A stretch of DNA of 64,000 nucleotides, from assembly GCA_036376135.1 (NCBI GenBank), contig DASVAW010000119.1:1767-65766 (forward strand). Reading direction: 5' to 3'. Under the pieces are notes generated by a model. That model had not been told where the DNA came from. It saw nothing but the letters and a program-made list of their open reading frames with translations, and ran no database searches. The stretch is from Candidatus Polarisedimenticolaceae bacterium. GTDB lineage: Bacteria; Acidobacteriota; Polarisedimenticolia; Polarisedimenticolales; DASRJG01. This document shows positions 4,796 to 63,725 of the stretch, piece after piece. The position numbers were made by a program, and so were the translations under genes. Position 1 is the stretch's first letter. Each line of letters starts with the position of its first letter.

Positions 4796-5172
4796 GCGAC
4801 TACGTCAGCTCGCGCGCCCCCGAGCCGGTCGGCGCCTTCCCCCACGCCAAGCGGGTCGGCGACTTCCTGTTCCTCTCCGGAATCGGCCCGCGGACCCCGG
4901 GGACGAACGCGATCCCGACCACGTTCGAGGAGCAGGCGCTCGCCGTGTTCCGCAACGTGCGCACCGTCCTCGAGGACGCGGGGGCGTCGTGGGAGGACAT
5001 CGTGGACGTGACGGTGTTTCTCACGAACATGAAGCGCGACTTCCCGTCGTTCAATCGCCTGTACGCGGAACATTTCGCGACGAACCGCCCGACGCGCACG
5101 ACGGTGGAAGTCGGGGCGTTGCCGACGCCGATCGACGTCGAGCTGAAGGTCGTCGCGTACCTGAAGAAATAG
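4792..5172 (+). CDS. RidA/YjgF-family protein, probably 2-aminomuconate deaminase
   Basis: 126 aa, RidA-like ('FLFLSGIGP', 'TRTTVEV'). ATGA overlap with the ALDH. TAG stop lies inside the foldback repeat. Confidence 0.75.
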   Translation: MSDYVSSRAPEPVGAFPHAKRVGDFLFLSGIGPRTPGTNAIPTTFEEQALAVFRNVRTVLEDAGASWEDIVDVTVFLTNMKRDFPSFNRLYAEHFATNRPTRTTVEVGALPTPIDVELKVVAYLKK

Positions 5173-5319
5173 GGACAGCAACCTTTAATTGGGGACAGTC
5201 ACCGTATTTCTGCAGGGAACCGACCCGCGCTCTGTCGGTATCGGTCGCCGCACGCCCGCGGGTCGGTTCCCTGCAGAAATACGGTGACTGTCCCCAATTA
5301 AAGGTTGCTGTCCCTATTT
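5167..5319. repeat. 153-bp perfect foldback repeat (63-bp arms, 27-nt loop), TAGGGACAG family, copy A
   Basis: Arms 5167-5229 and 5257-5319 are exact reverse complements (checked base by base). AT-richer than flanks. Each arm has two GGGACAG boxes. The outer AAATAG/CTATTT carries the stops of both convergent genes. Confidence 0.9.
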
Positions 5320-13237: not shown

Positions 13238-13269
13238 CGAGGCGGCTCACCATCTTCGACACGTTCCGA

Positions 13270-14048: not shown

Positions 14049-14651
14049 ATGCACGTCCTCCACGCGGACGCTCCCTTCCGGAACTCGGTCACGCAGGCCG
14101 TCCGCGAGCTCGAAAAGACAACCGCCGCCGAGGTCGTCGTCGTCCTCGCCGTGCGCTCGGGGTCGTACCGCGACGTCGCGTATGCCACCGGTGCCGCCGT
14201 CGCGTGGGCGACGCTGCTCTTCTTCATCTTCAGTCCGGCCACGTACTCGCCGCTCTGGGTCCCCGTCGAGATGGCAGCGCTCTTCGCCGCCGCGGCGTGG
14301 CTCGTCCATCGAACCCCCGCGCTCGCGCGCCTGCTGACGTCGACGAAGCGCCGCGAGGCCCAGGTCGCCCAGGCGGCCCAGGCGGCGTTCGTCGAGGAAC
14401 GCGTCGATCGCACCCGCGAGCGCACGGGAATCCTCGTCTACGTCTCCCTACTCGAACGGCGCATCGAGATCCTCCCCGACGCGGGGATCGACGGACGCGT
14501 CGCACCCGGAACGTGGAGCCCCGTCGACGTCCGCACGGGCGACGACGTCCTGCGCGAGCTGAAGCGGATCGGCGAGGTCCTCGCGCAGAAGGTCCCGCCG
14601 ACCGGTGCCAACCCCGACGAGCTCCCCGACGCCCCACGGATCCGCGGATGA
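14049..14651 (+). CDS. TPM-domain-like membrane protein
   Basis: 'AEVVVVLAV...YRD' and 'GILVYVSLLERRIEILPDAGI' resemble the two halves of a TPM domain, split by two hydrophobic helices. ATGA overlap with the next gene. Confidence 0.55.
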   Translation: MHVLHADAPFRNSVTQAVRELEKTTAAEVVVVLAVRSGSYRDVAYATGAAVAWATLLFFIFSPATYSPLWVPVEMAALFAAAAWLVHRTPALARLLTSTKRREAQVAQAAQAAFVEERVDRTRERTGILVYVSLLERRIEILPDAGIDGRVAPGTWSPVDVRTGDDVLRELKRIGEVLAQKVPPTGANPDELPDAPRIRG

Positions 14652-16120
14652 GACGGCGCTGGCCGCTCCTGCTCCTCGCGATTCTCGCGGCGAGCGAAGC
14701 GCTCGCTCGTCTGGGCGGCGGCGAGGGGTACTCGGGCGGCGGATCCTCGGGCGGAGGAGGGGGCGGTGGCGACGACGGCTTCGCGGTCTACGCGATCGTG
14801 CGTCTGCTGCTCTGGCTCGTCTTCCGGCACCCGCTGATCGGGATCCCCCTCGTGATCCTCGCGATCGTCGTCTTCGTGAAGATGAAGGCGGCGGGGAACT
14901 TCCAGGTCGCCTACGAGCCGGTCGTCCTGCGCACGGCCCCGCCGTCGCGCCCCGCCCCGGCGCAGCTGGACACGCTCCGTCAGGCCGACAGGAACTTCTC
15001 CGAGCCGGTCTTCCTCGACTTCGCGCAGCTCGTGTATGTCCGTGCGCAGGGAGCGCGACCGGGGAGCCGTGCCGAGATCGCCCAGCCGTGGATCGCCGAG
15101 GAGGCGCTGCCGATCCTCTTCGCGCGCCCCGAGGGGCTCGAGCAGGTCCGGGACGTCATCTTCGGGAAGACGGCGCCGTCCGGCTATCGGAGAGAGGAGG
15201 GGTTCGACCTCCTCGACGTGGACTTCGAGACGAATCTCACCGAGGTCCGCCAGGGACACGAACGCCAGCTCCTGCTCAAGGACCGCTGGACGTTCCGCCG
15301 GAAAGCGGGCGCGCTCTCCCCCGTCCCCGAACGGATGCGCGCTCTCGGCTGCGCCGGGTGCGGCTCGACCCTCGAGCCCAAGCCCGACGGCTCGTGCCCT
15401 AGCTGCGGCGCACCGCGCACGCGAGGCCTCCTGCAGTGGGAGGTCGCCAAGATCCTCCCCCTGGATCGACGGACGGTCGAGCCCCCGTCGCTCATGCTCG
15501 GGGGCGGCGTCGAGCCGGGGACGAACCTCCCGACGCGCTTCGACCCACGCCTGGGCGCGATGCGTCGCGACTTCGAGTCGCGCCATCCCGAGTTCTCGTG
15601 GGAGGTCTTCGACGCGCGCGCCCGCGAGACGTTCCTTCGGCTGCAGGACGCGTGGTCGAAGGGAAGCTGGGAGCTCGCCCGGCCGTACGAAACCGACGCG
15701 TTGTTCCAGTCGCACCGATTCTGGGTCGAGCGGTACAAGCGGTTCGGCCTCGTGAATCACCTCGAGGGGACGACGATCTCGCGCGTGGACGTCGCAAAGG
15801 TCGGCTTCGACGCCTTCTACGAGTCGATCACGGTGCGGATCTTCGCGACGATGCGCGACTGGACCGAGGACGCGTCGGGGAAGGTCGTCGGCGGGAGCAA
15901 GACGCTGCCGCGCACGTTTTCCGAGTACTGGACGTTCCTGCGCGCGGTCGGCGCGACCCGCAAGGTGCCGGGCGGTGCCGAGAGCTGCCCCTCGTGCGGC
16001 GCGCCGCTCGACAGGATCAACATGGCCGGCGTCTGCGAGTACTGCGGCTCGAAGCTCACGACCGGGGAGTTCGACTGGGTCGTGTCGCGGATCGAGCAGG
16101 ACGACGCGTACGGGGGTTAA
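14648..16120 (+). CDS. Tim44-like domain protein with Gly-rich N-terminus and two zinc ribbons
   Basis: Signal/TM, 'GGGSSGGGGGGGDDG' tract, 'CAGCGS..CPSCGA' and 'CPSCGA..CEYCGS' ribbons. 'FLRLQDAWSKGSW...' resembles a Tim44-like domain. Confidence 0.65.
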   Translation: MRRRWPLLLLAILAASEALARLGGGEGYSGGGSSGGGGGGGDDGFAVYAIVRLLLWLVFRHPLIGIPLVILAIVVFVKMKAAGNFQVAYEPVVLRTAPPSRPAPAQLDTLRQADRNFSEPVFLDFAQLVYVRAQGARPGSRAEIAQPWIAEEALPILFARPEGLEQVRDVIFGKTAPSGYRREEGFDLLDVDFETNLTEVRQGHERQLLLKDRWTFRRKAGALSPVPERMRALGCAGCGSTLEPKPDGSCPSCGAPRTRGLLQWEVAKILPLDRRTVEPPSLMLGGGVEPGTNLPTRFDPRLGAMRRDFESRHPEFSWEVFDARARETFLRLQDAWSKGSWELARPYETDALFQSHRFWVERYKRFGLVNHLEGTTISRVDVAKVGFDAFYESITVRIFATMRDWTEDASGKVVGGSKTLPRTFSEYWTFLRAVGATRKVPGGAESCPSCGAPLDRINMAGVCEYCGSKLTTGEFDWVVSRIEQDDAYGG

Positions 16121-16121
16121 T

Positions 16122-16137
16122 TAGGGACAGGCACCAA
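16122..16137. repeat. TAGGGACAG-family half-site C (TAGGGACAGGCACCAA)
   Basis: Starts 2 nt after the TAA of the Tim44-like gene. Its exact 16-nt reverse complement lies at 52264-52279. Confidence 0.6.
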
Positions 16138-16150
16138 CTCCTTCGCCGGC

Positions 16151-16735
16151 TCAGCGTCCGTCGGCCTGCGCGAGCGCCCGTTCCAGCAGCTCCGACAGGT
16201 CCATGCGTTCCGCTGCGGCGACGAGGTACGGCCGATCGATGTGCTCACCGGTGACCCTCAGGACCGACAACACGTCCCCCCATTGGCGGTCCGACGATTC
16301 GTTCCCGAGCCGATACCAACGCAGTTTCTGGAGGACGATGTCCTCAGGCTGATAGACGAACAGAAAGCGATCGGGATCGACCGCGACGCGAACCTTCCGT
16401 CGCCGCCGCATCTGCTCTTGGTCCACGGCGTGATCGCGGAGCACGAACAGGTCGACCTTCATCCCGGACTCGAGGTGGATCAGGTTCGCGCTCGATCGTT
16501 CGCGGACCGCGCGAACCAGAGCTTCGCGGTCGACATAGAAGCCTTCCCCTAGCAGCCACACCAGCGCTTCGATCTTCCCCTCGTCGAGCCGGACGACCAT
16601 GTCGACGTCCATCGTCGATCGCGGGACCCCGCTCAGCGAGGCAGCGACCGATCCGCCGACGAGGTACTCGACCCCCGCTCCTTCCAGGATCGCGCTGATG
16701 CGCAAGGCGACCTCGATCGGATCGGGGCTCATCAC
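16151..16735 (-). CDS. nucleotidyltransferase-fold protein (MNT-like)
   Basis: 'GGSVAASLSG' (G-S motif) plus 'DVDMVV' (DxD) typical of minimal nucleotidyltransferases. Overlaps the stop of the upstream 91-aa ORF. Slightly lower GC. Confidence 0.6.
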   Translation of the reverse strand: MMSPDPIEVALRISAILEGAGVEYLVGGSVAASLSGVPRSTMDVDMVVRLDEGKIEALVWLLGEGFYVDREALVRAVRERSSANLIHLESGMKVDLFVLRDHAVDQEQMRRRRKVRVAVDPDRFLFVYQPEDIVLQKLRWYRLGNESSDRQWGDVLSVLRVTGEHIDRPYLVAAAERMDLSELLERALAQADGR

Positions 16736-17007
16736 GGCGCGTCGAGGTGCGATCCGACCTCGGGGTAAGCGCGGCGGGCGAGGTCACCTCCGAGCCGCAG
16801 CACGGCCAGCCGCAGGAACACCTCGCGGTCCGAAGCGTTCGGGAATCGATGGCGAATTCCGGCGGCGGCGAACGTGTCGACCATTTGGCAGATCCCGGTC
16901 AACAACTCGGCCCGTTCCTCCGTCGACTTCCGGCGGATCAACTCGATCTGGATCCGCGCCGCCTCCGGCGAAGTGTCGAGATCGAGCCCGTGCCGGATGT
17001 CCTTCAT
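16732..17007 (-). CDS. small helical protein, partner of the nucleotidyltransferase
   Basis: 91 aa with balanced composition. Stop overlaps the downstream start, giving a two-gene module. No family recognised. Confidence 0.5.
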   Translation of the reverse strand: MKDIRHGLDLDTSPEAARIQIELIRRKSTEERAELLTGICQMVDTFAAAGIRHRFPNASDREVFLRLAVLRLGGDLARRAYPEVGSHLDAP

Positions 17008-17044
17008 GGTGCCGTCAGTTTCGCACGGGTCCGTGGGGTTCGGC

Positions 17045-18220
17045 TCATCCCCTCCCGCCCAGCCTCACCCTCAACCCAGCCCGAAGCGCCGCGATCGGAT
17101 AGAGCGTCCCGCGCCAGACGATGCCGCCGCGTTTCCAGCAGAAATAGGCCGACCGGATCAGGGTCCACGCGATCACGAGGAAGCCCAGCGGGCCGAGGAG
17201 CAGCGGCACGATCTTGCGCCCGGTCCGCTGCTTGAGGACGAGCCCCGCCGCGAGCATCACGAGCACGACGGCGATGCCGATCGCGCGGACGGGCCAGTAC
17301 GGTTGCGCGAGCGCGACGACAGGCCCCGGCAGCACCACCGCGATGAACGCGAGAAACGCGAACAATCGCGGGTACTGGTACATCGCGTACGCCCCGAAGG
17401 CGTTCTTCTCCAGGCCGCGGACCATCTGCCGGAGCGAGGCGTACCACTCGACCTCGACCTCCCCGAGGCCGATGGTGAATCCCCCCTTCGCTCCCGCGCG
17501 CTGCAGCATCAGCCCGAGGCCGACGTCGTCGAGGACCTCCATCTTCAACCACTCGAATCCGGGAGTGCGGTCGAACGCCGAGCGCCGCACGAGGTTGAAC
17601 GCCCCGACGCCCACGTACGCGTCGGAGCCCTCGCGCCCCACGTCCACCGCGCGCGTGCCGACCATGAACCCGGTCGCGAAGGCGTTGTAGGCGACCTCCT
17701 GCCAGAAGTTCCGCGCGACGAGCTCCGGAGCGACGACGAAGTGGTCGAGGTTGCGCTCGACGACGTGGGCGACGGCCTTTCTCAACGCGCCCTGCTTGAA
17801 GTGGACGTCGGCGTCGGTGAAGAGGAGAAACTCCCCCGTCGCCTTCAGCGTCCCGCGATGGACCGCGTGGACCTTCCCGAGCCAGTGCGCCGGGAGCTCG
17901 GCCACGTGGATCGGCAGGATCCGCGCGTCGCGTGCGGCGAGGGCGTCCACGACGCGGCCGGTGCCGTCGGTCGATCGATCGTTCACGAGGACGATCTCGA
18001 GGTCGGGGTAGTCCTGCGCGAGCAGGCTCGAGAGGGCCGACTCGAGGTGCTCCTCCTCGTTGCACGCCGCGATCACGACGGACAGGCGCGGGTACCGCGC
18101 GGGCTCGGGCGGCGCGAGGTCCTTGAACCGCACGAAGCGCAGCGCGGTGTAGAGGCCGAAGATCGACACGCCGAGCCACAACAGGCCCGTGACGCCGCCC
18201 CAGATCGCGAACGCCGTCAC
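17045..18220 (-). CDS. family 2 glycosyltransferase, membrane-bound
   Basis: 'LSVVIAACNEE', 'VNDRSTDGT' and 'FTDADV' GT-A motifs. N- and C-terminal TM helices. GTG at 18220 overlaps the upstream stop (GTGA). Confidence 0.8.
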   Translation of the reverse strand: MTAFAIWGGVTGLLWLGVSIFGLYTALRFVRFKDLAPPEPARYPRLSVVIAACNEEEHLESALSSLLAQDYPDLEIVLVNDRSTDGTGRVVDALAARDARILPIHVAELPAHWLGKVHAVHRGTLKATGEFLLFTDADVHFKQGALRKAVAHVVERNLDHFVVAPELVARNFWQEVAYNAFATGFMVGTRAVDVGREGSDAYVGVGAFNLVRRSAFDRTPGFEWLKMEVLDDVGLGLMLQRAGAKGGFTIGLGEVEVEWYASLRQMVRGLEKNAFGAYAMYQYPRLFAFLAFIAVVLPGPVVALAQPYWPVRAIGIAVVLVMLAAGLVLKQRTGRKIVPLLLGPLGFLVIAWTLIRSAYFCWKRGGIVWRGTLYPIAALRAGLRVRLGGRG

Positions 18221-21045: not shown

Positions 21046-22122
21046 ATGTGGACGCCACGCGCCATAATCGCCAGCGTGGAAACACGGGTTCTGCCGCCGA
21101 CGCCCGAGACGATCGCGCAAGCCGCAGCCGCACTGCGGCATGGGGATCTCGTCGGGATCCCGACCGAGACCGTCTACGGCCTCGCGGGGAACGCCCTCGA
21201 CGCGCACGCCCTCGCGTCGATCTTCGCCGCGAAGGAGCGCCCTTCGTTCGACCCGCTCATCGTCCACATCGGCGGCGCGATCGACGCGACGGGGCTCGTG
21301 GACCTCTCGGCGTTCGGCGCGTGCGCCCGCGACCGCCTTCGCGCGCTCGTCGACGCGTTCTGGCCGGGGCCGCTGACCCTGGTCCTGCCGAAGACCCCGA
21401 TGGTCCCCGACCTCGCCACGAGCGGCCTGGCGACGATCGCCCTTCGGGCGCCTTCGCATCCGGTGGCGCGCGCCCTGATCGCCGCGGCCGGCGTTCCGCT
21501 CGCCGCGCCGAGCGCGAACCGATTCGGCCGGATCAGCCCGACGACCGCCTCCGACGTCGTCCAGGAGTTGTGGGGACGGGTCTCGATGGTGATCGACGGG
21601 GGGCCCTGCGCCGTCGGCGTCGAGTCCACCGTCGTCGCGATCGATCCGGAGGGAGGGCTTCGGCTGCTGCGGCCGGGCGGGATCTCTCGGGAGTCGCTCA
21701 TCGCGGTCACCGGCGCACCCGTCGCCGTCGTGCCGCGCGTGGTGGGCCCGGGCGCCCCCGCGCGCTCCCCGGGGATGCTCGAAAGCCACTATGCGCCCGT
21801 GAAACCCCTGCACCTGCTCCCGCGCGCGATCCTCGCGTTGAACGACGTGGAACGTCGCGAGCTGCTCCCCGCCGGCGCCGGAATCCTCGCCGCGTCGGGG
21901 GATGCCGAGGCGATCGCCGCCGCCTGCGCCGGGCCGCCCACGATTCTCCGCGTGCTCAGTCCCTCCGGCGACGCGGAGGAGGCGGCACGGAACCTCTTTG
22001 CGGCGTTGCGCGCCCTCGACGCTTCCGAGGCGACGACCCTCGTCACCGAGCCGTGGCCCGGCGAGGAGGGGCTCGGCTACGCGATCGCCGACCGCCTGCG
22101 CCGCGCCACCGCCGTCAAATAG
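21046..22122 (+). CDS. tsaC: L-threonylcarbamoyladenylate synthase (Sua5/YrdC long form)
   Basis: 'GDLVGIPTETVYGLAGNA' and 'PSANRFG' YrdC motifs, plus a Sua5-type C-terminal domain. Start may be GTG at 21076. 'AAATAG' stop lies in foldback B. Confidence 0.85.
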   Translation: MWTPRAIIASVETRVLPPTPETIAQAAAALRHGDLVGIPTETVYGLAGNALDAHALASIFAAKERPSFDPLIVHIGGAIDATGLVDLSAFGACARDRLRALVDAFWPGPLTLVLPKTPMVPDLATSGLATIALRAPSHPVARALIAAAGVPLAAPSANRFGRISPTTASDVVQELWGRVSMVIDGGPCAVGVESTVVAIDPEGGLRLLRPGGISRESLIAVTGAPVAVVPRVVGPGAPARSPGMLESHYAPVKPLHLLPRAILALNDVERRELLPAGAGILAASGDAEAIAAACAGPPTILRVLSPSGDAEEAARNLFAALRALDASEATTLVTEPWPGEEGLGYAIADRLRRATAVK

Positions 22123-22242
22123 GGACAGCAACCTATTCGCTAAATAGGGACAGTCCCTCTTTTCCAGCTCCGCGACGTGTGTCTTCGGAGCTGGAAAAGA
22201 GGGACTGTCCCTATTTAGCGAATAGGTTGCTGTCCCTATTTG
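22116..22242. repeat. 127-bp perfect foldback repeat (57-bp arms, 13-nt loop), TAGGGACAG family, copy B
   Basis: 22117-22172 and 22186-22241 are exact reverse complements, plus one more flanking pair. Shares AAATAGGGACAGCAACCT with copy A. Contains a second box, TAGGGACAGTCCCT. Carries the stops of both convergent genes. Confidence 0.9.
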
Positions 22243-48501: not shown

Positions 48502-49472
48502 CCGAGCCGAACGACTCCATCACCCACGCCGTGGAGGTCGCCCGCCGCCTTCGCGAGTCCGTCTCCCGCGCCGTCGTCGGCCAGGCGACGCTCCTCGACG
48601 AGGTGCTCGCGGGGTTCCTCGCCTCGGGGCACGTCCTGCTCGAAGGGGTCCCCGGTCTCGGCAAGACCCTGACGGTGCTCGCCCTGGCGAAGGCGTTCGG
48701 CGGGAAGTTCTCGCGCATCCAGTTCACCCCCGACCTGATGCCCGCGGACGTCGTCGGCCACGCGATCTACGAGCCCCAGACCGGGCAGTTCCGCACGCGC
48801 CAGGGCCCGGCGTTCACGAACCTCCTCCTCGCCGACGAGATCAACCGCGCCCCCGCGAAGACGCAGTCGGCGCTCCTCGAGGTGATGCAGGAGCGGCAGA
48901 TCACGATCGAGGGGCAGTCGTTCCCCCTCGCCCCGCCCTTCATGACGCTCGCGACGCAGAACCCGATCGAGCTCGAGGGGACCTACCCGCTCCCCGAGGC
49001 GCAGCTCGACCGGTTCCTGCTCAAGGTCCGCATCCAGCACCCGGGCGAGGCCGAGGAGATCGCCATCGTCGAGGCGGCGACGCGCGGCCACGTGGGAGAC
49101 CGCCTCGACGTCTCCACGGTCGAGACCGTCGCCGACGCCGCCCAGGTCGTCGAGGCGCAGCGTGTCGCCGCGCGACTGCTCGTGGACGCGCGCGTCCTCG
49201 GGTACGCGACCCGCCTCGCCCGCGCCACGCGCACCTGGCCGGGGGTCGCGATGGGCGCCGGCCCGCGGGGCTCGATCTCCCTCGTGCGCGCCGCCCGCGC
49301 CGTGGCCCTCCTCGATGGGCGCGACTTCGTCACCCCCGACGACGTGAAGGCGATCGCGCTCCCGGCGCTTCGCCACCGGATCACCCTCGCTCCCGACCTC
49401 GAGATCGAGGGGCGCCACCCCGACGACGTCCTGCGCGCCGTCCTCGAGTCGGTCGAGGCCCCGCGCGCGTGA
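48498..49472 (+). CDS. MoxR-family AAA+ ATPase
   Basis: 'EGVPGLGKT' Walker A, 'LLADEINRAPAKTQSALLEVMQE' Walker B/sensor, 'GAGPRGS' motif. GTGA overlaps at both ends. Confidence 0.9.
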   Translation: MTEPNDSITHAVEVARRLRESVSRAVVGQATLLDEVLAGFLASGHVLLEGVPGLGKTLTVLALAKAFGGKFSRIQFTPDLMPADVVGHAIYEPQTGQFRTRQGPAFTNLLLADEINRAPAKTQSALLEVMQERQITIEGQSFPLAPPFMTLATQNPIELEGTYPLPEAQLDRFLLKVRIQHPGEAEEIAIVEAATRGHVGDRLDVSTVETVADAAQVVEAQRVAARLLVDARVLGYATRLARATRTWPGVAMGAGPRGSISLVRAARAVALLDGRDFVTPDDVKAIALPALRHRITLAPDLEIEGRHPDDVLRAVLESVEAPRA

Positions 49473-50773
49473 CCCCGTCGCGCCGCCTCGCGTGGGTCCT
49501 CGCGGCGTGGGCCGCGGCCGGGTTCCTCCTTCCGGTCGGTCCCTTCGTGCTCCCGGTGTGGGCGTACGCGGGCCTCGCGATCTTCGGCCTTCTGGGGATC
49601 GATGCGATCCTCGGCTCCCGACGGCGGACGCCGACGCTCACGCGGAAGGTGCAGGACGCGTTGCCGCTCGGCGATCCGTCGGAGGTCGTGCTCCACCTCG
49701 CGCACGAGGGGAGTCGCCCGCTCGCCGTCGAGGTGTTCGATCACCCGCCCGAAGCGTTGAGCACGGACGGGCTTCCCCTGCACGTGACGGTCCGTCCCGA
49801 AACGCCGGCCGAAGTCCGCTACCGCGTCACCCCGACCGCGCGCGGCTCGATGCGCTTCGACCGGGCATGGGTTCGATTCCCGTCGCCTCTGGGGCTGTGG
49901 GAGTGCCGCCGTCGCGCGGGCGCGGAGCACACGATCCGGGTCTTCCCGAACTTCCGGAAGGCGGCGCGCTGGTCGCTCTACGCGGTCGACAACCACGCGA
50001 GCCGGCTGGGAGTGCGCCTGCGCCCGCGTCGCGGCGAGGGAACCGAGCTGCGTGAGCTCCGGGAATACCGCGAAGGCGACGCGATCCGGCAGATCGACTG
50101 GAAGGCGACCTCACGGCTGCGCCGGCCCATCTCGCGGGAGTACCAGGCGGAGCGCGACCAGCAGGTGGTGTTCCTCCTCGACTGCGGCCGGACGATGCGT
50201 GCCGTCGACGACGGCGCGGCGCACTTCGATCATGCGCTCAACGCGGTCCTCCTGCTCGGTTACGTCGCCCTGAGGCAGGGGGACGCCGTGGGCCTTCTCG
50301 CGTTCGGCTCGACCCCGCGCTGGCTCGAGCCGGTGCGCGGCCCCGGCGGGATGAAGACGCTCCTGGAGGCGGTCTACGACCTCGAGACGGCGCCGCAGGC
50401 GTCGGACTACGCCGTGGCGGTCGCCGACCTGCTCGCACGGCAGCGCCGGCGCGCGCTCGTCGTCGTGATCTCCAACCTCGGCGACGGGGAGGGGTTCGAG
50501 GTCGCGGCGCCCCTGCAGACCCTGCGACGCAAGCACCTCGTCGTGCTGGGCTCGCTGCGCGAGGCGGCGCTCGATCGCGCGCTCGCGGCGCCGGTGGCGG
50601 GGTTCGACGCGGCGCTGCGGATCGCCTCGACCCACCGTTTCCTCGAGGCCCGCGAGCGCGCGCACCGCGGCTTCCAGTCGCGCGGCATCCACGTGCTCGA
50701 TTGCCCGCCGTCGGAGCTGCCGCCGGCGCTGGTCAATCGCTACCTCGACATCAAGCGGGCTGGGACGCTGTAA
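49469..50773 (+). CDS. DUF58 (vWA-like) protein
   Basis: Two N-terminal TM helices. 'LREYREGDAIRQIDWKATSR' DUF58 signature. 'VVFLLDCGRTM' vWA-like start. Confidence 0.85.
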   Translation: MTPSRRLAWVLAAWAAAGFLLPVGPFVLPVWAYAGLAIFGLLGIDAILGSRRRTPTLTRKVQDALPLGDPSEVVLHLAHEGSRPLAVEVFDHPPEALSTDGLPLHVTVRPETPAEVRYRVTPTARGSMRFDRAWVRFPSPLGLWECRRRAGAEHTIRVFPNFRKAARWSLYAVDNHASRLGVRLRPRRGEGTELRELREYREGDAIRQIDWKATSRLRRPISREYQAERDQQVVFLLDCGRTMRAVDDGAAHFDHALNAVLLLGYVALRQGDAVGLLAFGSTPRWLEPVRGPGGMKTLLEAVYDLETAPQASDYAVAVADLLARQRRRALVVVISNLGDGEGFEVAAPLQTLRRKHLVVLGSLREAALDRALAAPVAGFDAALRIASTHRFLEARERAHRGFQSRGIHVLDCPPSELPPALVNRYLDIKRAGTL

Positions 50774-50793
50774 ATAGGGACAGGAACCTATTT
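50772..50793. repeat. TAGGGACAG-family half-site D (AAATAGGGACAGGAACCTATTT, itself a 7-bp-stem mini-palindrome)
   Basis: Contains the TAA of the DUF58 gene (+) and the TAG of the orphan ORF (-). 20/21 identity with 22117-22137. Confidence 0.7.
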
Positions 50794-52218
50794 CCGACCT
50801 CCGGTCGGCCATCGGCAGACCTCGCGGTCATAGGAGACGACGTCCGAAGCCAAGTCTCCTTCGCCGAGACAGATCTCCTTCGTGGCGGAACCCCAACGCT
50901 CGCGGCTGGTCGGGAGCAGCGGGGTGTAGTCCCGTTCCAGCTCGCCATCGCATCCCGGGCTCACCAGAACGACGCCGAGACCATCTGAGAAATAGAGAAC
51001 GGAGCGCCCCCACCCATCGAGGATGGGACCGACAGCGTCCTTCGATGCAGGATCGACGGCCGTGGCGATCCGCTCGAACGGAACCAATCGTCCCCCGCTG
51101 TCGGGATAACGATCGCCTCGGCGCAGTTTCTCGGAGGCCGTGACAACCGCCCGGCGGATCGCCGCGTACGTTCGTTCGACATCCGCATCATCGAACGAGG
51201 CGCAGCCGTCCACCGCTGCGCCGGCGCAGAGCGCAGGGTTCGTTTCGACCTCCGCGAGGCGACGGTCAACGCATTCCGAAGGACTGCCACTCTGCGCGAA
51301 GCCGTACACGTCGATGTCGACGTCGCAACCGAGGGTGGAGCAGATCCGATCGCAGTAGTCGCGCGGAAGCTCGACCGACCGCTCTTCGCCCGCGACCCAC
51401 TCGTCGGCTCCAGGCCACGGAAGCGACAGGAACACCTCCCCGGAGCGGTCGCCGGCGCGACGAAGGTCGATCGCCTCGGTTTCATCGGAACGTCGCAGAC
51501 TCGTTCCCGACCCGTTGACCAGGACCAGCCGTCTCGTCGCGTCGATTCGCGCGCGAATGCCCTCCTCGGTATTGCACGATTCCACGACGACGGGTTCGCG
51601 ACCGGGATCGGCCACTAGGAAGCGACGGAGCGACTCCGACTCGCCGACGGTGATGCGGAAGGCTGCGCCGTTGCGCTCGTTGCCTTGCTTGTCGACCAGA
51701 GTGGGGCGCACGGAATAGGTGCCGGGCGCTACCTTCGAGGCGTCCCACGCCCCTTCTTTCCCTGAGTCGAAGACGACCGCGATCCCCTCGGTGCCCTCGG
51801 AGCCGGTCAGCGCCAGCGATCGGATGCGCAGCGGGCAGGGAACTTGCGGACAACCGTCCGACGCCGTCCACGTGCGACCTGGCGACGCGTGGACGACCGT
51901 GGCGAAGCATCCGATCAGCAGGCCTGTGAGAGCAGCCCCCAACGTGTTCTGAACGTTCCCGTTGCGGGCAGCGCGCCGACCGAGACGATGCAGCACCGCC
52001 GCCACGACCATCGCCACGCCGGTCGCGAGCAGAACCCAGCCGGTGAAGCGCGGCCCCCGGATCGCCAGCGTGAGCGCGGCGGCAACGATCATCGTGACGC
52101 CCAACGCATCGGCGAGCCGCTTTCCCCGATCTCCCCGGCGTCGAATCCAGATGAGGACGTACCCGACACCGATACCGACCGCCGCGGGGTAGAGGGTCTC
52201 TACGAGATCCATGGGCAC
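50788..52218 (-). CDS. orphan membrane protein with Cys-rich extracytoplasmic region (lower GC)
   Basis: N-terminal 3-4 TM helices, then a balanced Cys-containing sequence. No family recognised. ATG at 52212 is an alternative start. Bracketed by inverted half-sites D and E. Confidence 0.55.
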   Translation of the reverse strand: MPMDLVETLYPAAVGIGVGYVLIWIRRRGDRGKRLADALGVTMIVAAALTLAIRGPRFTGWVLLATGVAMVVAAVLHRLGRRAARNGNVQNTLGAALTGLLIGCFATVVHASPGRTWTASDGCPQVPCPLRIRSLALTGSEGTEGIAVVFDSGKEGAWDASKVAPGTYSVRPTLVDKQGNERNGAAFRITVGESESLRRFLVADPGREPVVVESCNTEEGIRARIDATRRLVLVNGSGTSLRRSDETEAIDLRRAGDRSGEVFLSLPWPGADEWVAGEERSVELPRDYCDRICSTLGCDVDIDVYGFAQSGSPSECVDRRLAEVETNPALCAGAAVDGCASFDDADVERTYAAIRRAVVTASEKLRRGDRYPDSGGRLVPFERIATAVDPASKDAVGPILDGWGRSVLYFSDGLGVVLVSPGCDGELERDYTPLLPTSRERWGSATKEICLGEGDLASDVVSYDREVCRWPTGGRK

Positions 52219-52263
52219 CGCCCTCCCGTCCGATTGCCCGGGAGTGTAGCGCCGAGTCGTTAA

Positions 52264-52284
52264 TTGGTGCCTGTCCCTATTTTT
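52264..52284. repeat. TAGGGACAG-family half-site E (reverse complement AAAAATAGGGACAGGCACCAA)
   Basis: Carries the Lys + TAG end of the 52277..52702 gene. Inverted relative to D (16/17 over AAATAGGGACAGGnACC) and a 16-nt exact inverted match to half-site C. Confidence 0.7.
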
Positions 52285-52702
52285 CGATGCGGACGCCGCG
52301 GCGCTGCATCGCCTCGGACAAGACGGCGGCGATCTTCCTGGGGTTGCCGAGCAGGCGCGGCACCTCGATCACGACCCCCTCGGAGATGGAAAGCGTCAAC
52401 CCCGGCCGCAGGGCGATCGCGATCTGCGTGAGATCGTCGAGGCGCACGGCGATCACCCGGCCGAGGAGGTCGCACGACGCCACGTGCGTCTCCGTCAACA
52501 CGAGCCGCCGCCGCCACGCCTCGAAGAGCGCCCAGATGCAAAGGAGCGGCGCGCCGTAGCCGTAGATCTTGAGGACCCCCGGCCACGTCGCCGCGAACGC
52601 CCCCCAGATCGTGATCGCCCCGAGCACGGACAGCCCGATGCGAAGCCACCACGGGTAACGCCAGATCCTCACGGGAGTGCCGAGATCTTCCGGGATTCGC
52701 AT
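52277..52702 (-). CDS. small membrane protein, possibly bacterial PH (YdbS/DUF304-like)
   Basis: 141 aa, two TM helices then a ~70-aa beta-rich domain. Start shares one base with the upstream permease stop. Confidence 0.5.
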   Translation of the reverse strand: MRIPEDLGTPVRIWRYPWWLRIGLSVLGAITIWGAFAATWPGVLKIYGYGAPLLCIWALFEAWRRRLVLTETHVASCDLLGRVIAVRLDDLTQIAIALRPGLTLSISEGVVIEVPRLLGNPRKIAAVLSEAMQRRGVRIEK

Positions 52703-59701: not shown

Positions 59702-59725
59702 TATCAACCAAACGGTTGGTTGATA
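59702..59725. promoter_or_regulatory. putative TetR operator: TATCAACCAA-ACGG-TTGGTTGATA
   Basis: Perfect 10-bp inverted arms with a 4-nt spacer in the 105-bp divergent region between the TetR/efflux operon and the aldehyde dehydrogenase gene. A TATATT -10-like hexamer lies at 59783-59788. Confidence 0.5.
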
Positions 59726-59797
59726 ACAATAACAGCGCTGTCAAGAGGGGGCTCGGAGAATGCCGACCGGCTTTTCGGTCCCTATATTCGCGACGTC

Positions 59798-61480
59798 ATG
59801 TCCAGCCGCCCCGACCCCGCATACCAGGCCACGGCGGGGCTCGGCCCTCCCCTGCTGCCCCTGGTCGAGGGGCAGGCCGGGGTCGGTGCCGGCCCGACGC
59901 TGTTCTGCGTGAACCCCGCGACCGGGGAAGCGTTCGGCCACGTCGCCTGCGCGAACAGCGAGGAGATCGACCGCGCGGTGGAGTCGGCGGCCTTCGCCGC
60001 GAAGTTATGGCGCTCGGCCCCCTTCGAGGAACACGCGCGCGCCCTCAACCGGCTCGCGGAGCGCGTGCGCCTCGAAGCGGAGGAGATCGCGGGGCTCATC
60101 GCCCTCGAGCAGGGGAAGCCCTTCGTCGAGGCGCTGAACCTCGAGATCCTCCCCGCCCTCGATCACCTGCGGTTCCTCGCGAAACACGCGCGCGACCTGT
60201 TGCACGGCGAGCCGATCGACCCGCGCCACCCGCTGTACGCGCACAAGGACGCCTTCTACCTCTACGACCCCGTCGGCGTCGTCGCGCTCGTCACCTCCTC
60301 GCCCCTTCCCTTCGCGCAACCTCTCGTCCAGGCGGCGACCGCGCTCGTCCTGGGAAACGCCGTCGTGCTCAAGCCGAGCGAGCACACGCCGATGTGCGGC
60401 CTTCGCGTCGGACAGCTGTGCGTGGACTCGGGATTCCCCGCGGGGCTCGTCAACGTCGTGCCGGCATCCCGCGAGGACACGCTGCACCTGGTCTCCCACG
60501 AGCGCATCGACAAGGTCTTCGTCTCGGGCTCCCTCGAGGCGGGGCAGAACGTCATGGTCACCGCCGGCTGCGCCCCGCGCCCGGTGGTGCTCGCCCTGGG
60601 CGGCAAACACCCGGCGATCGTCGCCGCCGACGCCGACCTCGATCGCGCCGCGCGCGGGATCGTGTGGGGCGCCTTCGCCAACGCCGGCCAGAACTGCGGC
60701 GCCGTCGAGCGCTGCTACGTCGAGGAGGCCGTGGCCGCGCGCTTCATCGCGCGCGTCCTCGAGCTCGTCGACGCGCTTCGCATCGGCGACCCGCTCTCGA
60801 AGGAGGTCGAGATCGGGCCGATGGTGTCGGAGGATCGCCGGCAACACGTGCATGCCCACGTCGAGGACGCGGTGCGCCGCGGCGCGCGCCTGCTGCGCGG
60901 CGGGACCATGCCCGACGGGCCGGGGTTCTTCTACCCGCCGACGGTCGTGCTCGACCCTCCCGAGGACGCCCTGATCCTCAACGAGGAGACCTGCGGCCCC
61001 GCGCTCGCCGTCGTCGTCGTCCCGAACATCGAGCGCGCCCTGATGCTCGCGAACGAGAGCGAATACGCGATGACCGCGAGCGGATGGACGTCGTCGCCGG
61101 AGAACGGCGAGCGGATCGCGGCCGGCCTCGAGGCGGGTGTCGTCACGATCAACGACGTGTTGTACGCGTGGGGCGAGCCCGCGGCGTCGTGGTCGGGGTT
61201 CAAGCGCAGCGGCCTCGGTCAGGTCCACGGTCGCGCGGGGTTGCAGGAGATGGTCCGCCGCCGGTTCGTGTCGTTCGACGCGGAGCCGGGTCTCTCGCCG
61301 CTGTTCGCATTCCCCTACGACGAGCCCGCCGACCACATGGCGCGCACCGCTCTCGCCGCGATGCACGCGCCGACCAAGCGCAAGCGCTTCTTCGGGGTGC
61401 TGCGCCTGGTGCGCAACGCTCGCTTCCGCGAGCGGGTGAACTGGAAGTCGTTCCTGCTGGGGCGCAAGCGGCAGAAGTAG
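59798..61480 (+). CDS. aldehyde dehydrogenase family protein with basic C-terminal extension (560 aa)
   Basis: 'ALGGKHP' and 'GQNCGAVERCYV' catalytic Cys region. About 80 extra C-terminal residues rich in K/R ('KRKRFFGVLRLVRNARFRERVNWKSFLLGRKRQK'). Confidence 0.85.
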   Translation: MSSRPDPAYQATAGLGPPLLPLVEGQAGVGAGPTLFCVNPATGEAFGHVACANSEEIDRAVESAAFAAKLWRSAPFEEHARALNRLAERVRLEAEEIAGLIALEQGKPFVEALNLEILPALDHLRFLAKHARDLLHGEPIDPRHPLYAHKDAFYLYDPVGVVALVTSSPLPFAQPLVQAATALVLGNAVVLKPSEHTPMCGLRVGQLCVDSGFPAGLVNVVPASREDTLHLVSHERIDKVFVSGSLEAGQNVMVTAGCAPRPVVLALGGKHPAIVAADADLDRAARGIVWGAFANAGQNCGAVERCYVEEAVAARFIARVLELVDALRIGDPLSKEVEIGPMVSEDRRQHVHAHVEDAVRRGARLLRGGTMPDGPGFFYPPTVVLDPPEDALILNEETCGPALAVVVVPNIERALMLANESEYAMTASGWTSSPENGERIAAGLEAGVVTINDVLYAWGEPAASWSGFKRSGLGQVHGRAGLQEMVRRRFVSFDAEPGLSPLFAFPYDEPADHMARTALAAMHAPTKRKRFFGVLRLVRNARFRERVNWKSFLLGRKRQK

Positions 61481-61519
61481 GGGTCGGGCGTAACCGGTTA
61501 ACCAGTCTTGGGAGCGCCC

Positions 61520-62551
61520 TCACACCGCGAAGCCGAACCCCATCAGACTCCAGAGCACGAAGCTGAGCGTGCCGAGGTCTCGTTTCTCGCGCAGGGAGAC
61601 GCAACTCACCGATGCGGCCGTGCTCGGCACCTTGCCGACCGTCAGATCCGTGAGCCCTCGGATCGCCGCCAGAACCTCCTCGCTGTCGGTGTCGGGACCC
61701 GGTGCGACCCAAACCGTGGTCGCCAGATCTTCGCGGACCAGGAATCCGGTCGCGCCATCGAAGGACTCGGGGACCGGCCCCATCCCCTTGCGCGGGGCTT
61801 GGGGGGTCTTCGGAACCCGTCGCAGTCCCCACGCGATGACCGAGGCCTCCGATGATGGGCCGCAGGAACCGCCCTGCGGTGGGATTCGTCGGTGCGCCAA
61901 CCAGGCGACCAGTTTCTCGCCCGTCGCCATCGCTTCTGGAGACGTTGCAGCAATGAGCACTCCCGGTACGGGGTTCTTGAGATGAAGCGGCCGGGGTTCG
62001 TCGTCGGCATCGGTGGTCGCCTGCAAGGTCGAGCCGGCCGGGTTCTTTCCCCCGCCGCCTGCTGCCGCGCTCGGCCCGGCCGGTAGGGCGCAGTCCTCCG
62101 CTCTCGCACACTTGACGATCGTCCCTCCGTCGAACCGCATCAGCCCAAGGCCGGCCGGGGCACGAAAACTCCCGCCGAACATCGCGCTCCACTCGATCGA
62201 CCGACCTTGCAGCTCCGGGGAAGCTCGAACGTCCGTGCACCTGTAGAGGAGCATCGACGCGACAAAACGCATCTCTGCGATGTTCCCTTTCCTGTTGGCG
62301 GGACTGGCGGACGGCGCCACGTACGGCCCGTTCAAGACGACGATCGATTCGATCTCCGGGACTGAAGGCTCCGTGGAAAGGGGCTCGGTATCTCGAGCGC
62401 TCGTGGACATGGAGAGACCGACCGAAGCGAGAATCGCCATCGACCCGATTCTCGCAACAGCCAGGCTACGTGGGCTGATCGGTGCAGGGCCAGTCGAAAC
62501 TCGGCACGACGATTCGCACGCGCTTCGACCGCTCGGTGGCGCCTTCCTCAT
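61520..62551 (-). CDS. hypothetical protein (lower-GC island)
   Basis: Longest frame in this stretch. The Met at 62551 is ATGA-overlapped with the upstream membrane-protein stop. No family recognised, and the start and even the coding status are uncertain. Confidence 0.4.
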   Translation of the reverse strand: MRKAPPSGRSACESSCRVSTGPAPISPRSLAVARIGSMAILASVGLSMSTSARDTEPLSTEPSVPEIESIVVLNGPYVAPSASPANRKGNIAEMRFVASMLLYRCTDVRASPELQGRSIEWSAMFGGSFRAPAGLGLMRFDGGTIVKCARAEDCALPAGPSAAAGGGGKNPAGSTLQATTDADDEPRPLHLKNPVPGVLIAATSPEAMATGEKLVAWLAHRRIPPQGGSCGPSSEASVIAWGLRRVPKTPQAPRKGMGPVPESFDGATGFLVREDLATTVWVAPGPDTDSEEVLAAIRGLTDLTVGKVPSTAASVSCVSLREKRDLGTLSFVLWSLMGFGFAV

Positions 62552-62955
62552 CCTGACCTCTCGCGCATCGGTAGCTGGCTCCGACCTACCAGCGTGGCAA
62601 GAAGGATCCCCGTCAGGACCATCGACGCATCTCCCAGAGCTTCGCTGACACCGACGGCCAAGCGAGCGTCGGCGAACGCCGTGGAGAGGAACTCCATCGT
62701 CGTGGCCACGACCAGCAAGGGCAAAGCGCCGCGCCGGCCTATCCAAGCCAGCACACTAGAAACGGCCAACCCGACGAGCGCGACAAGGCCCGCGAGTGGG
62801 GCCAGACGCCCGGTCGGTAGAATCGATTCCGACACGGCCGTTGAGGGCCCAGGCACGGAAGTAGTGATGCGGGCAACGGCACCAGCGCCGGCACCGAGGA
62901 TGATCACCCCCCACAGTGCCACGATCAGCAGCCGTGTTCGCATCGTCTCGGTCAT
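62548..62955 (-). CDS. hypothetical 4-TM membrane protein
   Basis: 135 aa, four hydrophobic helices, GGGAGG RBS upstream of the ATG at 62955. Confidence 0.5.
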   Translation of the reverse strand: MTETMRTRLLIVALWGVIILGAGAGAVARITTSVPGPSTAVSESILPTGRLAPLAGLVALVGLAVSSVLAWIGRRGALPLLVVATTMEFLSTAFADARLAVGVSEALGDASMVLTGILLATLVGRSQLPMRERSG

Positions 62956-63053
62956 CGAAGCCTCCCAACCGCCGCGCCGGCGATCCGAAGTCGGGAACCG
63001 ACGCTCACGTCACCGGGCTCAGGTCTCCGCTCACCAATAAGCTCGAAGCTAGC

Positions 63054-63725
63054 TCACTCATCCACCCGATCGAACACCGGCAGCAGCGCCTTGAACACTT
63101 CGAGTACCGCCCGCCCGAACTCGGGCGACGCCACGAGATCCATCGACGCGGGGAGCTCCCAGCGGCGTCCCAGCTCCCACCACACCCCGCGCAGCGCGGT
63201 CTCGTGGAAGCTCCGCTGCCAATCCGACTGCGATTCGAAGACGAGTCGCGAGCCGTCCGGCCACGGGGCCGAGGCGTAGACCCTGAAGTACAGGTCCCCC
63301 GCGGCAGCCACCTCGGCGAGGCGGGCGCCGAGCCCCCCATGCCGCGCGCGAAACTCGAAGCGCCCAAAACCGGTCTGCGCGGCGTCCCATGCGAGTCGCG
63401 CGGCGACGTGGTCCGCGTGGACCCCCACGTTGAGCTGGGGGGCGGACTGGTACCCCTGCGCGAGGTGGGAAAGGGCGAGCCACGTGCAGAACGGCTGATA
63501 GGTCTTCGGCCAGTTGAGCTGCGGGAGGTGCGCGTGGAGGGGGGGCTCCCCCGGTGCCGCGAGGCCCTCGACCAGGTCCTCCCCCAGCGCCTCGAGGGCG
63601 GGGTGGAACCCGTCGAGGATCGCCCGCCGGCGCCGCTCCTTCTCCTGGATCGAGAAGACCTCGAACGCGGCGGCGGGAAGCCCGCGGAATCTCCGGTCCG
63701 GCTCGAACAACGAACCTGAGCTCAC
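63054..63725 (-). CDS. hypothetical protein, tentatively DUF1054/YktB-like
   Basis: Balanced composition, unlike the overlapping frame 63058..63732. The layout 'FEVFSI..R...I...HPALEALGEDL....LHAHL' resembles YktB-family proteins as I remember them. Confidence 0.5.
   Translation of the reverse strand: MSSGSLFEPDRRFRGLPAAAFEVFSIQEKERRRRAILDGFHPALEALGEDLVEGLAAPGEPPLHAHLPQLNWPKTYQPFCTWLALSHLAQGYQSAPQLNVGVHADHVAARLAWDAAQTGFGRFEFRARHGGLGARLAEVAAAGDLYFRVYASAPWPDGSRLVFESQSDWQRSFHETALRGVWWELGRRWELPASMDLVASPEFGRAVLEVFKALLPVFDRVDE

Follow-up and report, generated by a model that had tools for sequence, protein, structure and literature searches.

A hypervariable slot between two REP-type units at a convergent gene junction

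Is a gene that lies between two inverted repeats their cargo, or do the repeats mark a place where DNA comes and goes? A junction in the window, as we call the whole 64-kb stretch of DNA analysed here, raises this question. The DUF58/VWA gene (49472..50773, + strand), the last gene of a MoxR-type operon, converges on the junction. The tail gene of an efflux operon (52277..52702, - strand), which encodes 141 aa and has no Pfam family, closes the other side. Between them lies an accessory "orphan" gene of 474 aa (50788..52212, - strand, counted from the conserved ATG), with a repeat unit at each end. REP stands for repetitive extragenic palindrome, and a REPIN is an inverted REP doublet. REPINs are usually portrayed as short passengers of stable DNA that are inherited vertically. 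An earlier note on this DNA suggested that the repeat termini might bracket mobile cargo, or that foldback centres might be insertion hotspots. We argue that repeated gain, loss and replacement at this junction favour the second suggestion.

The repeat units and the genes they terminate

Both ends are where the earlier note placed them. The left unit, AAATAGGGACAGGAACCTATTT (50772..50793, + strand), is an AAATAGG-GACAGGAA-CCTATTT mini-hairpin with a 7-bp AAATAGG/CCTATTT stem and an 8-nt loop. It overlaps the TAA of DUF58 (50771-50773) and, on the minus strand, contains the AAA-TAG (Lys-TAG) of the ORF, whose stop is at 50788-50790. The right unit (52264..52284, - strand) is the reverse complement of AAAAATAGGGACAGGCACCAA and contains the AAA-TAG (Lys-TAG) of the tail gene, with the stop at 52277-52279. 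The left palindrome and the stop codons had been read correctly. So had the inverted relation of the ends: a repeat search pairs 50772-50798 with 52256-52282 at 85% complementarity, and the units agree at 19/22 positions.

Through the REP units, the flanking genes have acquired new 3' ends and stop codons. The C-terminus of the tail protein (...GVRIEK, then the stop) is provided by the REP unit. Homologues that lack a REP continue as ...IERSTGRS, ...VRRSTAPRSS and similar, that is ...IER plus 0-8 extra residues against ...IEK and the stop.

The unit recurs in the window. It is 22 nt long, AAATAGG-GACAGSMA-CCTATTT with a 7-bp stem, a short imperfect palindrome as expected of a REP. TAGGGACAGG occurs 12 times at no more than one mismatch, against 1.42 expected, and 0/100 shuffles reach 12. 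There are 11 REP units at 5 loci, each at a gene 3' end. Two of the loci are intact REPIN-type foldbacks with two units per arm and arms that are 22/22 identical. The one at 5167..5319, where the units contain GGGACAG, provides the K-TAG stops of both convergent genes and has an MFE of -134 kcal/mol (z = -21). The second (22117..22241) has an MFE of -118 kcal/mol (z = -22). As had been claimed, the layout at our junction is that of these foldbacks with a gene replacing the loop. A single unit has no folding advantage over shuffled sequence (z = -0.5 to -1.7). A promoter/terminator scan of 50.5-52.6 kb found no sigma-70-like promoter and gave the half-sites no terminator score, and no Rfam family matched the window at gathering thresholds.

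There is also a REP singlet, AATTAGGGACAGGCACCAAC (16118..16137, + strand), with 19/22 identity to the right-end unit; the exact 16-nt match reported between the right end and the half-site at 16122 is real. This singlet adjoins a low-GC3 segment of two genes.

A REP family and its transposase

A metagenome scan using the motif alone gave 120 loci. These include 22 inward-facing neighbouring pairs spaced 50-135 nt, which are typical REPIN hairpins. Four of the five wider inverted pairs enclose Y1_Tnp genes (L129, L154, L168, L169). The genes of L129, L154 and L168 match PF01797 (E = 2e-15 to 3e-8), and their top NCBIfam match is "REP-associated tyrosine transposase" (NF047646) at 68-76 bits, slightly below the 80-bit cut-off; L169 was not scanned. 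RAYT-like matches that are adjacent or partial, seen by tblastn only, occur at L138, L161, L169, L171, L186 and L206. Judged by eye, the units flanking the Y1 genes agree with those of the window at ~19-20/22 positions. The stem differs among contigs yet stays complementary (e.g. GCAAAATAGG...CCTTTTTGC). The core of the repeat is shared by contigs of 33-71% GC, and the associated RAYTs are mutually 34-65% identical. Both half-sites belong to a REP/REPIN family that has a cognate RAYT, a Y1/HUH tyrosine transposase, elsewhere. A tblastn search with the RAYTs found no RAYT gene in the window or in any close-relative contig, so any active RAYT in this organism is hypothetical. Against the PLSDB plasmids the RAYT gave only matches of <=42% identity, annotated "transposase", with no named host.

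Two large REP superfamilies are marked by GTAG or CGTC tags (PMC3733652). GTAG/CTAC and CGTC/GACG are absent from our unit, in which the conserved head is AAATAG-GGACAG. This places the family outside the two tagged superfamilies and is compatible with REP status. A full-text search of the literature brought up nothing relevant on the repeat sequence, and GGGACAG/CTGTCCC is absent from the REP/RAYT papers searched. The family is previously undescribed, and its core is conserved across very different genomes.

The gene between the units

The ORF is a genuine accessory gene, though an atypical and fast-evolving one. Its leader (52213..52263, - strand) has a GGGAGGG ribosome-binding site ~8 nt before the ATG. 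The product contains 13 Cys and, within residues 3-109, four hydrophobic (TM) helices, which agrees with the 3-4 helices and Cys-rich region reported before. It is membrane-anchored and probably extracytoplasmic. The helices are followed by an Ig-like beta-sandwich (~129-189, weakly predicted), a Cys-rich linker and a putative GspG/T2SSG-like domain (~340-470). The gene was rightly said not to be a transposase. It was also called unrecognisable, and that is not wholly so since the C-terminal ~130 aa probably form a GspG/T2SSG-like domain. Residues ~330-472 match 80+ proteins (E down to 5e-19), and PF08334 is carried by 7/8 of those that were scanned. The ORF itself has no PF08334 match, nothing above cut-off in Pfam and NCBIfam, and no match in a PDB sequence search. 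An AF2 model of residues 340-470 has a pLDDT of ~90. Foldseek of the model against PDB gave no match at E <= 0.001, weak Ig-like hits only, and a pilin first at rank 39.

The composition of the ORF is atypical, as suspected: its GC3 is 0.768, while seven neighbouring genes have 0.91-0.97. Across the 64 kb there are four sustained stretches of low GC3, and the ORF is one of them. These were found with a phase-GC sliding window, used instead of per-gene GC3 from greedy ORF picking, which is unreliable in high-GC sequence. The description of this DNA as a lower-GC segment has to be qualified. The drop in GC3 is specific to the ORF. Bulk GC is lower too (0.671 in 50794-52263 against 0.708 in the window), but this drop extends through the ABC-2 permease genes to ~54.5 kb, where it is due to low GC2.

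The ORF has a dN/dS of 0.49 relative to L001, whereas five flanking genes have values of 0.04-0.11. Its nucleotide identity to L001 is a mosaic, at ~75% in the leader and codons 1-110 and ~97% in codons 111-474, with 93-95% in the flanks. The sole full-length homologue among 5.8 billion proteins is P0002, which is 89% identical and comes from the same junction. A set of 1.84 billion representatives has no full-length match, only domain-level hits and P0013, which also sits at the DUF58/tail junction.

Alleles of the junction

Relatives that have the DUF58 and efflux-tail genes show about nine alleles of the junction, with flanking genes that are 78-97% identical. In the window the ORF lies between both units. 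L001 and L002 have the ORF plus an AAA_14/DUF4143 gene. L087 has the N-terminal module of the ORF, a stop and then unrelated DNA. L085 has the leader, 9 codons and 0.39 kb of unrelated DNA, all inside both units. L084 is a simple foldback (a REPIN with 23/23-nt arms, a 51-nt loop and ~97 nt end to end), and the earlier note had predicted just such a form in a relative. L086 has the right unit alone, joined at an ATTA/ATTTA microhomology. L210 is reduced to one 21-nt palindromic unit, with end-points that are symmetric from unit to unit. The deletion end-points of L210 and L086 are in or at REP units. L211 and L213-215 have different neighbouring sequences.

The left unit is at the equivalent position in L085, L084 and L211, and L001 has a degenerate copy. 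The right unit is kept 3' of the tail gene in L001, L083, L084, L085, L086 and L087; it is truncated in L210 and a variant in L213-215. The ORF leader is conserved in L001, L087 and L085, and its start is also seen in L083. The variable bodies of L085 and L087 have no homology to the ORF at the DNA or protein level. The junction slot is hypervariable, with repeated gain, loss and replacement.

The outgroup L212 (DUF58 62% aa identity) has DUF58 and tail genes that overlap convergently without a REP or ORF, and the C-terminus of its tail protein is longer. Both the ORF and the REPs are thus derived. The ORF leader is present in the most divergent clade members (L085, L083), so the simple REPIN of L084 could be ancestral or a secondary replacement. 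It must be noted that NJ trees from 400-470 nt are too weak for ordering events inside the clade, and that all relatives are short, unbinned metagenome contigs. A search of GTDB species genomes via DUF58 gave as nearest Candidatus Polarisedimenticolaceae/Polarisedimenticolia at 55% identity, which is too far for comparing junctions; the motif is absent there.

In principle the alleles could be products of metagenome assembly, with contigs mis-joined or repeats collapsed at short palindromes. The contigs of L083 and L213-215 stop 29-39 nt past the tail-gene stop codon, just beyond the REP, which means repeats or strain mixtures do break assemblies. However, the shared repeat core is only 13-23 nt, and this is below the k-mer sizes usual for metagenome assembly. 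The alleles were recovered independently, from different samples and pipelines (Logan, JGI, ENA), flank divergence is consistent with each allele, and L001 and L002 are the same allele in two runs. We consider an artefact extremely improbable.

Cargo, bystanders or a hotspot

Another possibility is that REP(+)-gene-REP(-) is mobilised in trans by a RAYT, with the ORF in the place of the RAYT gene, much like a mobile insertion cassette. The RAYT genes in L129, L154 and L168 show an equally tight layout. At L207 a DUF7544 membrane-protein gene, which is not a transposase, is tightly enclosed by an inverted REP pair. L210 would match precise excision between two units, and the outgroup L212 is without repeats and gene. 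The ORF is not found at a second locus among 5.8 billion proteins, its 89%-identical orthologue is at the same junction, and the 1.84 billion representatives add no full-length copy. There is no target-site duplication, as the flanks ...ACGCTGT / AAATAGGG and CCCTATTT / TTCGATG have no direct repeat. The arms are 19/22 identical, against 22/22 in intact REPINs. The left end is 20/22 identical to the 22.2-kb units, so the two ends do not form a closest pair and are not more alike than unrelated family members, an outcome that the earlier note had named as refuting its idea. Transposition should be all-or-none, but the repeats are found without the gene in L084, L086 and L210, and the leader or N-terminal module is joined to other bodies in L085 and L087. 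A tblastn search of the variable bodies found no RAYT remnants. Nothing supports the ORF moving as a unit, and cargo bracketed by the family's termini is an improbable reading of this locus. A fast-changing gene at a junction with a different form in nearly all close relatives points to a recombination-prone repeat site, not to a demonstrated cargo transposon.

It is worth considering whether the REPs are just bystanders. The ORF would then be a plain accessory gene between operons, the units would have colonised both intergenic regions independently because REP units prefer gene 3' ends, and the gene-less relatives would be ordinary deletions. The units share only 19/22 positions, and each has equally close or closer matches among units elsewhere. 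All family members in the window abut gene 3' ends, the leader is common to the whole REP-bearing clade, and L086 resembles a plain microhomology deletion. In Pseudomonas, REPs accumulate in stable, older DNA and strain-specific genes are in REP deserts (PMC3390384), which is the opposite tendency to a REP hotspot and counts against that explanation. On the other side, L084 is a canonical REPIN whose 23/23 arms and ~97 nt fall within the 50-135 nt of the family, and a random 1.5-kb deletion is unlikely to produce it. L085 retains both units around its unrelated 0.39-kb body. The end-points of L210 are symmetric within two units. About nine alleles at one junction between flanking genes that are 78-97% identical is exceptional turnover. 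We regard the bystander scenario as unlikely, but it deserves to be taken seriously.

We argue with moderate confidence that the REP doublet is at a convergent junction where the DNA between the units is a variable accessory slot, turned over through REP-linked instability. A doublet would have settled where the DUF58 and efflux-operon tail genes converge, replacing both stop codons. Its very stable hairpin is followed by a T-run, so it is probably a bidirectional terminator or an RNA-stabilising hairpin. The DNA between the units is not the repeat itself but a strain-variable accessory slot. In the window this slot holds a fast-evolving, GC3-poor gene gained after the split from REP-less relatives, and since then sister lineages have replaced part of the ORF, extended it or deleted it. 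The likeliest mechanism is that the REP units form hairpins or cruciforms, or are nicked by a RAYT, which would create a breakage-prone spot. What lies between them could then be turned over by illegitimate or microhomology-mediated joining and by homologous exchange via the conserved flanks. We infer from one junction that the REPs are the cause of the hotspot.

At this junction the spacer of one REP doublet turned into a gene slot with rapid turnover. Should REP hairpins and gene turnover prove to be linked throughout the genome, REPINs would contribute to accessory-gene flux and provide a tractable way to study the entry of ORFan genes into bacterial chromosomes when no classical mobile element is involved. 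A bolder idea is that REP doublets are hairpin-bounded single-gene slots whose content is excised, captured and exchanged by the Y1/HUH transposase or by host hairpin processing. We think this is a long shot. If true, the REP-gene-REP units (with the ORF, the DUF7544 gene of L207 or a RAYT) would be a cassette system that is integron-like in function and HUH-run.

Comparison with known systems

The closest known system is that of REP/REPIN elements and their RAYT transposase (Nunvar 2010, PMC2817692; Bertels & Rainey 2011, PMC3116915; Bertels 2017, PMC5581495). Our family has a 22-nt hairpin-forming unit that is extragenic and at gene 3' ends. It occurs as singlets and as inverted doublets spaced 50-135 nt that fold into long hairpins, and in metagenome loci the same units flank a Y1/HUH transposase gene. 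It differs in having ATAG-GGACAG instead of GTAG or CGTC tags (PMC3733652). Classical systems are lineage-specific, whereas our core spans contigs of 33-71% GC with RAYTs that are 34-65% identical. The units here provide the stop codons of flanking genes, the 64-kb window and close-relative contigs have no RAYT, and the doublet encloses a 1.5-kb gene where the usual spacer is up to ~100 nt.

IS1397 and ISKpn1 target enterobacterial BIMEs. ISPpu9 inserts in the REPs of Pseudomonas putida (PMC8450116). These cases share with ours foreign DNA within or between palindromic units and a split doublet. Unlike in those cases, the DNA inserted here is not an IS. It lacks a transposase, terminal repeats of its own and a target duplication, and its content varies between relatives. 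MIC231 of Bacillus cereus is a mobile insertion cassette, a MITE with a passenger gene. It too has a non-transposase gene between inverted repeats, with the family's transposase acting in trans. The multi-site cassette, target duplication and all-or-none presence of such elements were sought here and not found.

Integron cassettes with their attC sites are a functional analogy only. Our junction has no attC R/L boxes, integrase or array, and site-specific recombination at it is without support. Any enzyme acting here would belong to the HUH Y1 transposases and not to the tyrosine recombinases. What the two share is single-gene units with imperfect-palindrome hairpins that are recognised single-stranded, and a variable content that is often made up of ORFan genes.

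Repeat units in the window

The 474-aa minus-strand ORF at 50788-52212 is a strain-variable accessory gene. It occupies a hypervariable slot flanked by two REP (repetitive extragenic palindrome) units. Both units are where the earlier note placed them. The left unit (50772-50793, +) is AAATAGGGACAGGAACCTATTT, with a 7-bp stem and an 8-nt loop. On the plus strand it overlaps the stop TAA of DUF58 (49472-50773, +), and on the minus strand the AAA-TAG that ends the ORF. The right unit (52264-52284, -) is the reverse complement of AAAAATAGGGACAGGCACCAA, and inside it is the AAA-TAG of the last gene of the ABC-2 efflux operon (the tail gene; 52277-52702, -). A repeat search of the window recovered the inverted pair, which bears out that the ends are inverted copies of one family. 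With at most one mismatch TAGGGACAGG occurs 12 times in the window versus 1.4 expected, and no shuffle gets to 12. With GGGACAG as anchor, 11 units of the family can be placed, at five loci. There are perfect long foldbacks at 5167-5319 (MFE -134 kcal/mol, z ~ -21) and 22117-22241 (MFE -118 kcal/mol, z ~ -22), and a REP singlet at 16118-16137; the other two loci are the left and right units just described. All units in the window adjoin the 3' end of a gene, and most supply the stop codon (K-TAG).

The AAATAG head of the REP is the Lys-TAG stop of the adjoining gene (TAA for DUF58) at each copy whose frame was read (that of the 16.1-kb singlet was not). These heads or stops are at 5167-5172, 5314-5319, 22117-22122, 22236-22241, 50771-50773, 50788-50793 and 52277-52282; P0008-P0011 and the outgroup contig L212 were also compared. 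The singlet shares 19 of 22 positions with the right-end unit. Directly beside it (window 16118-17250, singlet included) is a sustained low-GC3 segment that may be another accessory insertion next to a REP, and the two small minus-strand ORFs in this segment (16151-16735, 194 aa; 16732-17007, 91 aa) have no Pfam match. Sustained low codon-position GC is also found at 13050-14250 and 61200-63300 (maximum-phase GC 0.65-0.78 vs a median of 0.91), with no REP unit detected near either stretch. Away from the REP units the window has only one strongly AT-rich 12-mer, GGTTGATAACAATAACAGCGCTGTCA at 59720-59745. The efflux operon is downstream of it and a TetR-type gene nearby, and it may be an operator.

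A REP/REPIN-RAYT family

JGI metagenome contigs were scanned with AAATAGGGACAGSMACC alone, which gave 120 loci with GC of 0.33-0.71. Within these are 22 neighbouring inward-facing pairs 50-135 nt apart. Their arms are near-perfect and their loops variable, the architecture of a REPIN (an inverted REP doublet). Five pairs are wider (440-970 nt), and in four of them (L129, L154, L168, L169) the units flank an ORF that carries HUH and Tyr motifs. The first three ORFs match Pfam Y1_Tnp (E = 2e-15 to 3e-8). On the NCBIfam model for the 'REP-associated tyrosine transposase' (RAYT), NF047646, they reach 68-76 bits, which just misses the cut-off of 80 bits and far exceeds their scores on the IS200 model. 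By tblastn, more RAYT-like copies adjoin the motif in L138, L161, L171, L186 and L206. The units flanking these metagenome RAYTs, such as AAATAGGGACAGCCACCTATTTT, are identical by eye to the window units at ~19-20 of 22 positions. The repeats appear to have the defining features of REP/REPIN-RAYT systems (PMC2817692, PMC3116915, PMC5581495). No RAYT was found in the window or in the contigs of close relatives.

The REP core AAAATAGGGACAGGCACC... makes REPIN-like doublets in metagenome contigs of 33-71% GC (L090-L209), and the RAYTs flanked by it are mutually only 34-65% identical. Across these contigs its conservation seems unusually broad for a REP sequence.

The gene between the units

The segment between the units had been described as lower in GC. 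Its bulk GC is slightly low (0.671 vs 0.708 in the window), but this continues across the neighbouring permease genes. What is specific to the ORF is its GC3, 0.768 vs 0.91-0.97 in seven neighbouring genes, so its composition is atypical as claimed. Sustained low GC3 occurs in four stretches of the window, of which the ORF is one. The frame is correct because GC3 > GC1 > GC2, the leader with its GGGAGGG ribosome-binding site is kept in four relatives, and the length is kept in an orthologue.

The protein was called unrecognisable, and this is only partly so. Pfam and NCBIfam give no match above cut-off, and the only homologue that a word-indexed search turned up among 5.8 billion proteins is P0002, an orthologue at the same junction with 89% identity. 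When 1.84 billion representatives were searched exhaustively with HMMER, relatives were found for parts of the protein only. Residues ~330-472 are matched by 80+ proteins, and seven of the eight scanned have the Pfam T2SSG (GspG-like) domain. A few matches suggest an Ig-like sandwich at ~137-204, and the N-terminal membrane module has one match, the 99-aa protein P0013. AlphaFold2 gives four N-terminal helices and a confident C-terminal domain (pLDDT ~90, residues 340-470), with the middle not predicted; Foldseek of the model against the PDB has no significant match. With 13 Cys, the product is predicted to be membrane-anchored and probably extracytoplasmic, in line with the Cys-rich membrane protein first proposed. 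It is not a transposase, as the earlier note had it.

Relative to L001, the closest ORF-bearing relative, dN/dS of the ORF is 0.49 versus 0.04-0.11 for five flanking genes. Divergence is mosaic: nucleotide identity is ~75% over the leader and codons 1-110, ~97% over codons 111-474 and 93-95% in the flanks. This mosaic points to recombination inside the ORF. Over window 50820-52260, the leader and first ~110 codons have dS 0.35 and dN 0.19, and the remaining ~365 codons have dS 0.04-0.10. Codons 111-474 are less diverged than the flanking housekeeping genes, which suggests that the gene body was recently exchanged between lineages.

Alleles of the junction

Among GTDB species representatives no genome is close: DUF58 is most similar there to sequences of Candidatus Polarisedimenticolaceae/Polarisedimenticolia, at 55%, a weak hint of an acidobacterial host. 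Junction-spanning contigs were obtained through tail-protein and DUF58 homologues in metagenome assemblies, and the comparison rests wholly on these short, unbinned contigs. L210 (tail region 97% nt) lacks the ORF and has a single 21-nt perfect palindrome, AAATAGGGAC-A-GTCCCTATTT, which supplies both stop codons. L213-215 (tail 99% aa) have a variant unit and then unrelated sequence where the contig ends; that sequence, CTGTCCAAGATACCGGTCTGGGAC, is seen in no other allele. L001/L002 (98.5% aa) have the ORF, a 1.2-kb AAA_14/DUF4143 gene and a degenerate left unit. In L087 (95% aa) the leader and N-terminal membrane module (67% aa) run into a stop, with unrelated DNA beyond it. In L086 (92% aa) the right unit alone is directly joined to the DUF58 stop, and L083 (91% aa) has the right unit and leader start before the contig ends. 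L211 (DUF58 89% nt) has the left unit and a degenerate second one, followed by a different gene in convergent orientation. L084 (tail 80% aa) has no ORF, just a simple REPIN (arms 23/23, loop 51 nt; MFE -60.7, z = -7.6). This is the simple foldback that relatives should show if the ORF had been inserted. L085 (79% aa) has both units; the leader and first 9 codons are followed there by unrelated DNA, 0.39 kb long, with AAATAG at its end. The slot is extraordinarily variable: ~9 alleles occur in contigs with 78-97% identity in the flanking genes. Deletion end-points are in or at REP units: the L210 deletion is symmetric, unit to unit, and the L086 join is at ATTA/ATTTA microhomology.

In L001 the 1.2-kb AAA_14/DUF4143 ATPase segment (L001:11426-12768, window 50694-50790) separates the ORF from DUF58. 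It is preceded by ~90-100 nt that copy the DUF58 3' end at 74-78% identity, and the functional DUF58 ends in TAG without a REP unit. The arrangement resembles either an insertion that duplicated its target or the product of exchange with a REP-less allele.

One can imagine that these alleles are assembly artefacts. This is unlikely because they come from independent samples and pipelines, and the divergence of the flanks is consistent with each allele. Four independent Logan contigs (L083, L213, L214, L215) end 29-39 nt past the tail-gene stop codon, just beyond the REP containing it, which is consistent with strain heterogeneity at the junction.

In the outgroup L212 (DUF58 62% aa) the convergent DUF58 and tail genes overlap, with no REP and no ORF, and the tail protein ends ...VRRSTAPRSS. 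More distant tail homologues end in ...IER plus 0-8 more residues, not ...IEK*. The repeats and ORF are thus derived, and the ancestral junction was one of direct convergence. REP-less tail homologues have longer, different C-termini, so when the REP arrived it rewrote the 3' ends of both flanking genes. The simple REPIN of L084 may be ancestral or secondary because L085 and L083, which diverge most among the REP-bearing members, have the ORF leader; trees of within-clade order, built from short sequences, cannot decide its status.

Hotspot or mobile cargo

The earlier note offered two readings, termini that bracket mobile cargo and a foldback centre that is an insertion hotspot. Under the first a REP(+)-gene-REP(-) element moves as a unit. 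The layout is exactly that of RAYT genes, precise excision would fit L210, and another non-transposase gene is bracketed alike: L207:12071-13045 has a tight inverted REP pair around a 298-aa multi-pass membrane protein with a weak DUF7544 match. However, the two ends are only 19/22 identical while the left end is 20/22 identical to the 22.2-kb units, and the arms of intact REPINs are 22/22. The earlier note had itself named such an outcome as one that would refute its idea. There is no target duplication at the junction flanks, and the ORF is at no other locus among the 5.8 billion proteins or 1.84 billion representatives. Relatives have the repeats without the gene, or gene fragments with different bodies, and no variable body has a RAYT remnant. 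A mobile cargo element is therefore unsupported and improbable, and insertion at a foldback hotspot is the favoured reading. That the REPs cause the hotspot is something we infer from one junction.

Comparison with known systems

No description of this repeat was found in the searchable literature, and no Rfam family matches it. The repeats are a previously undescribed family within the known REP/REPIN-RAYT kind. Their unit has neither GTAG nor CGTC, the tags of the two large REP superfamilies (PMC3733652). In Pseudomonas REPs mark stable DNA (PMC3390384); the variable REP junction described here is the opposite picture.
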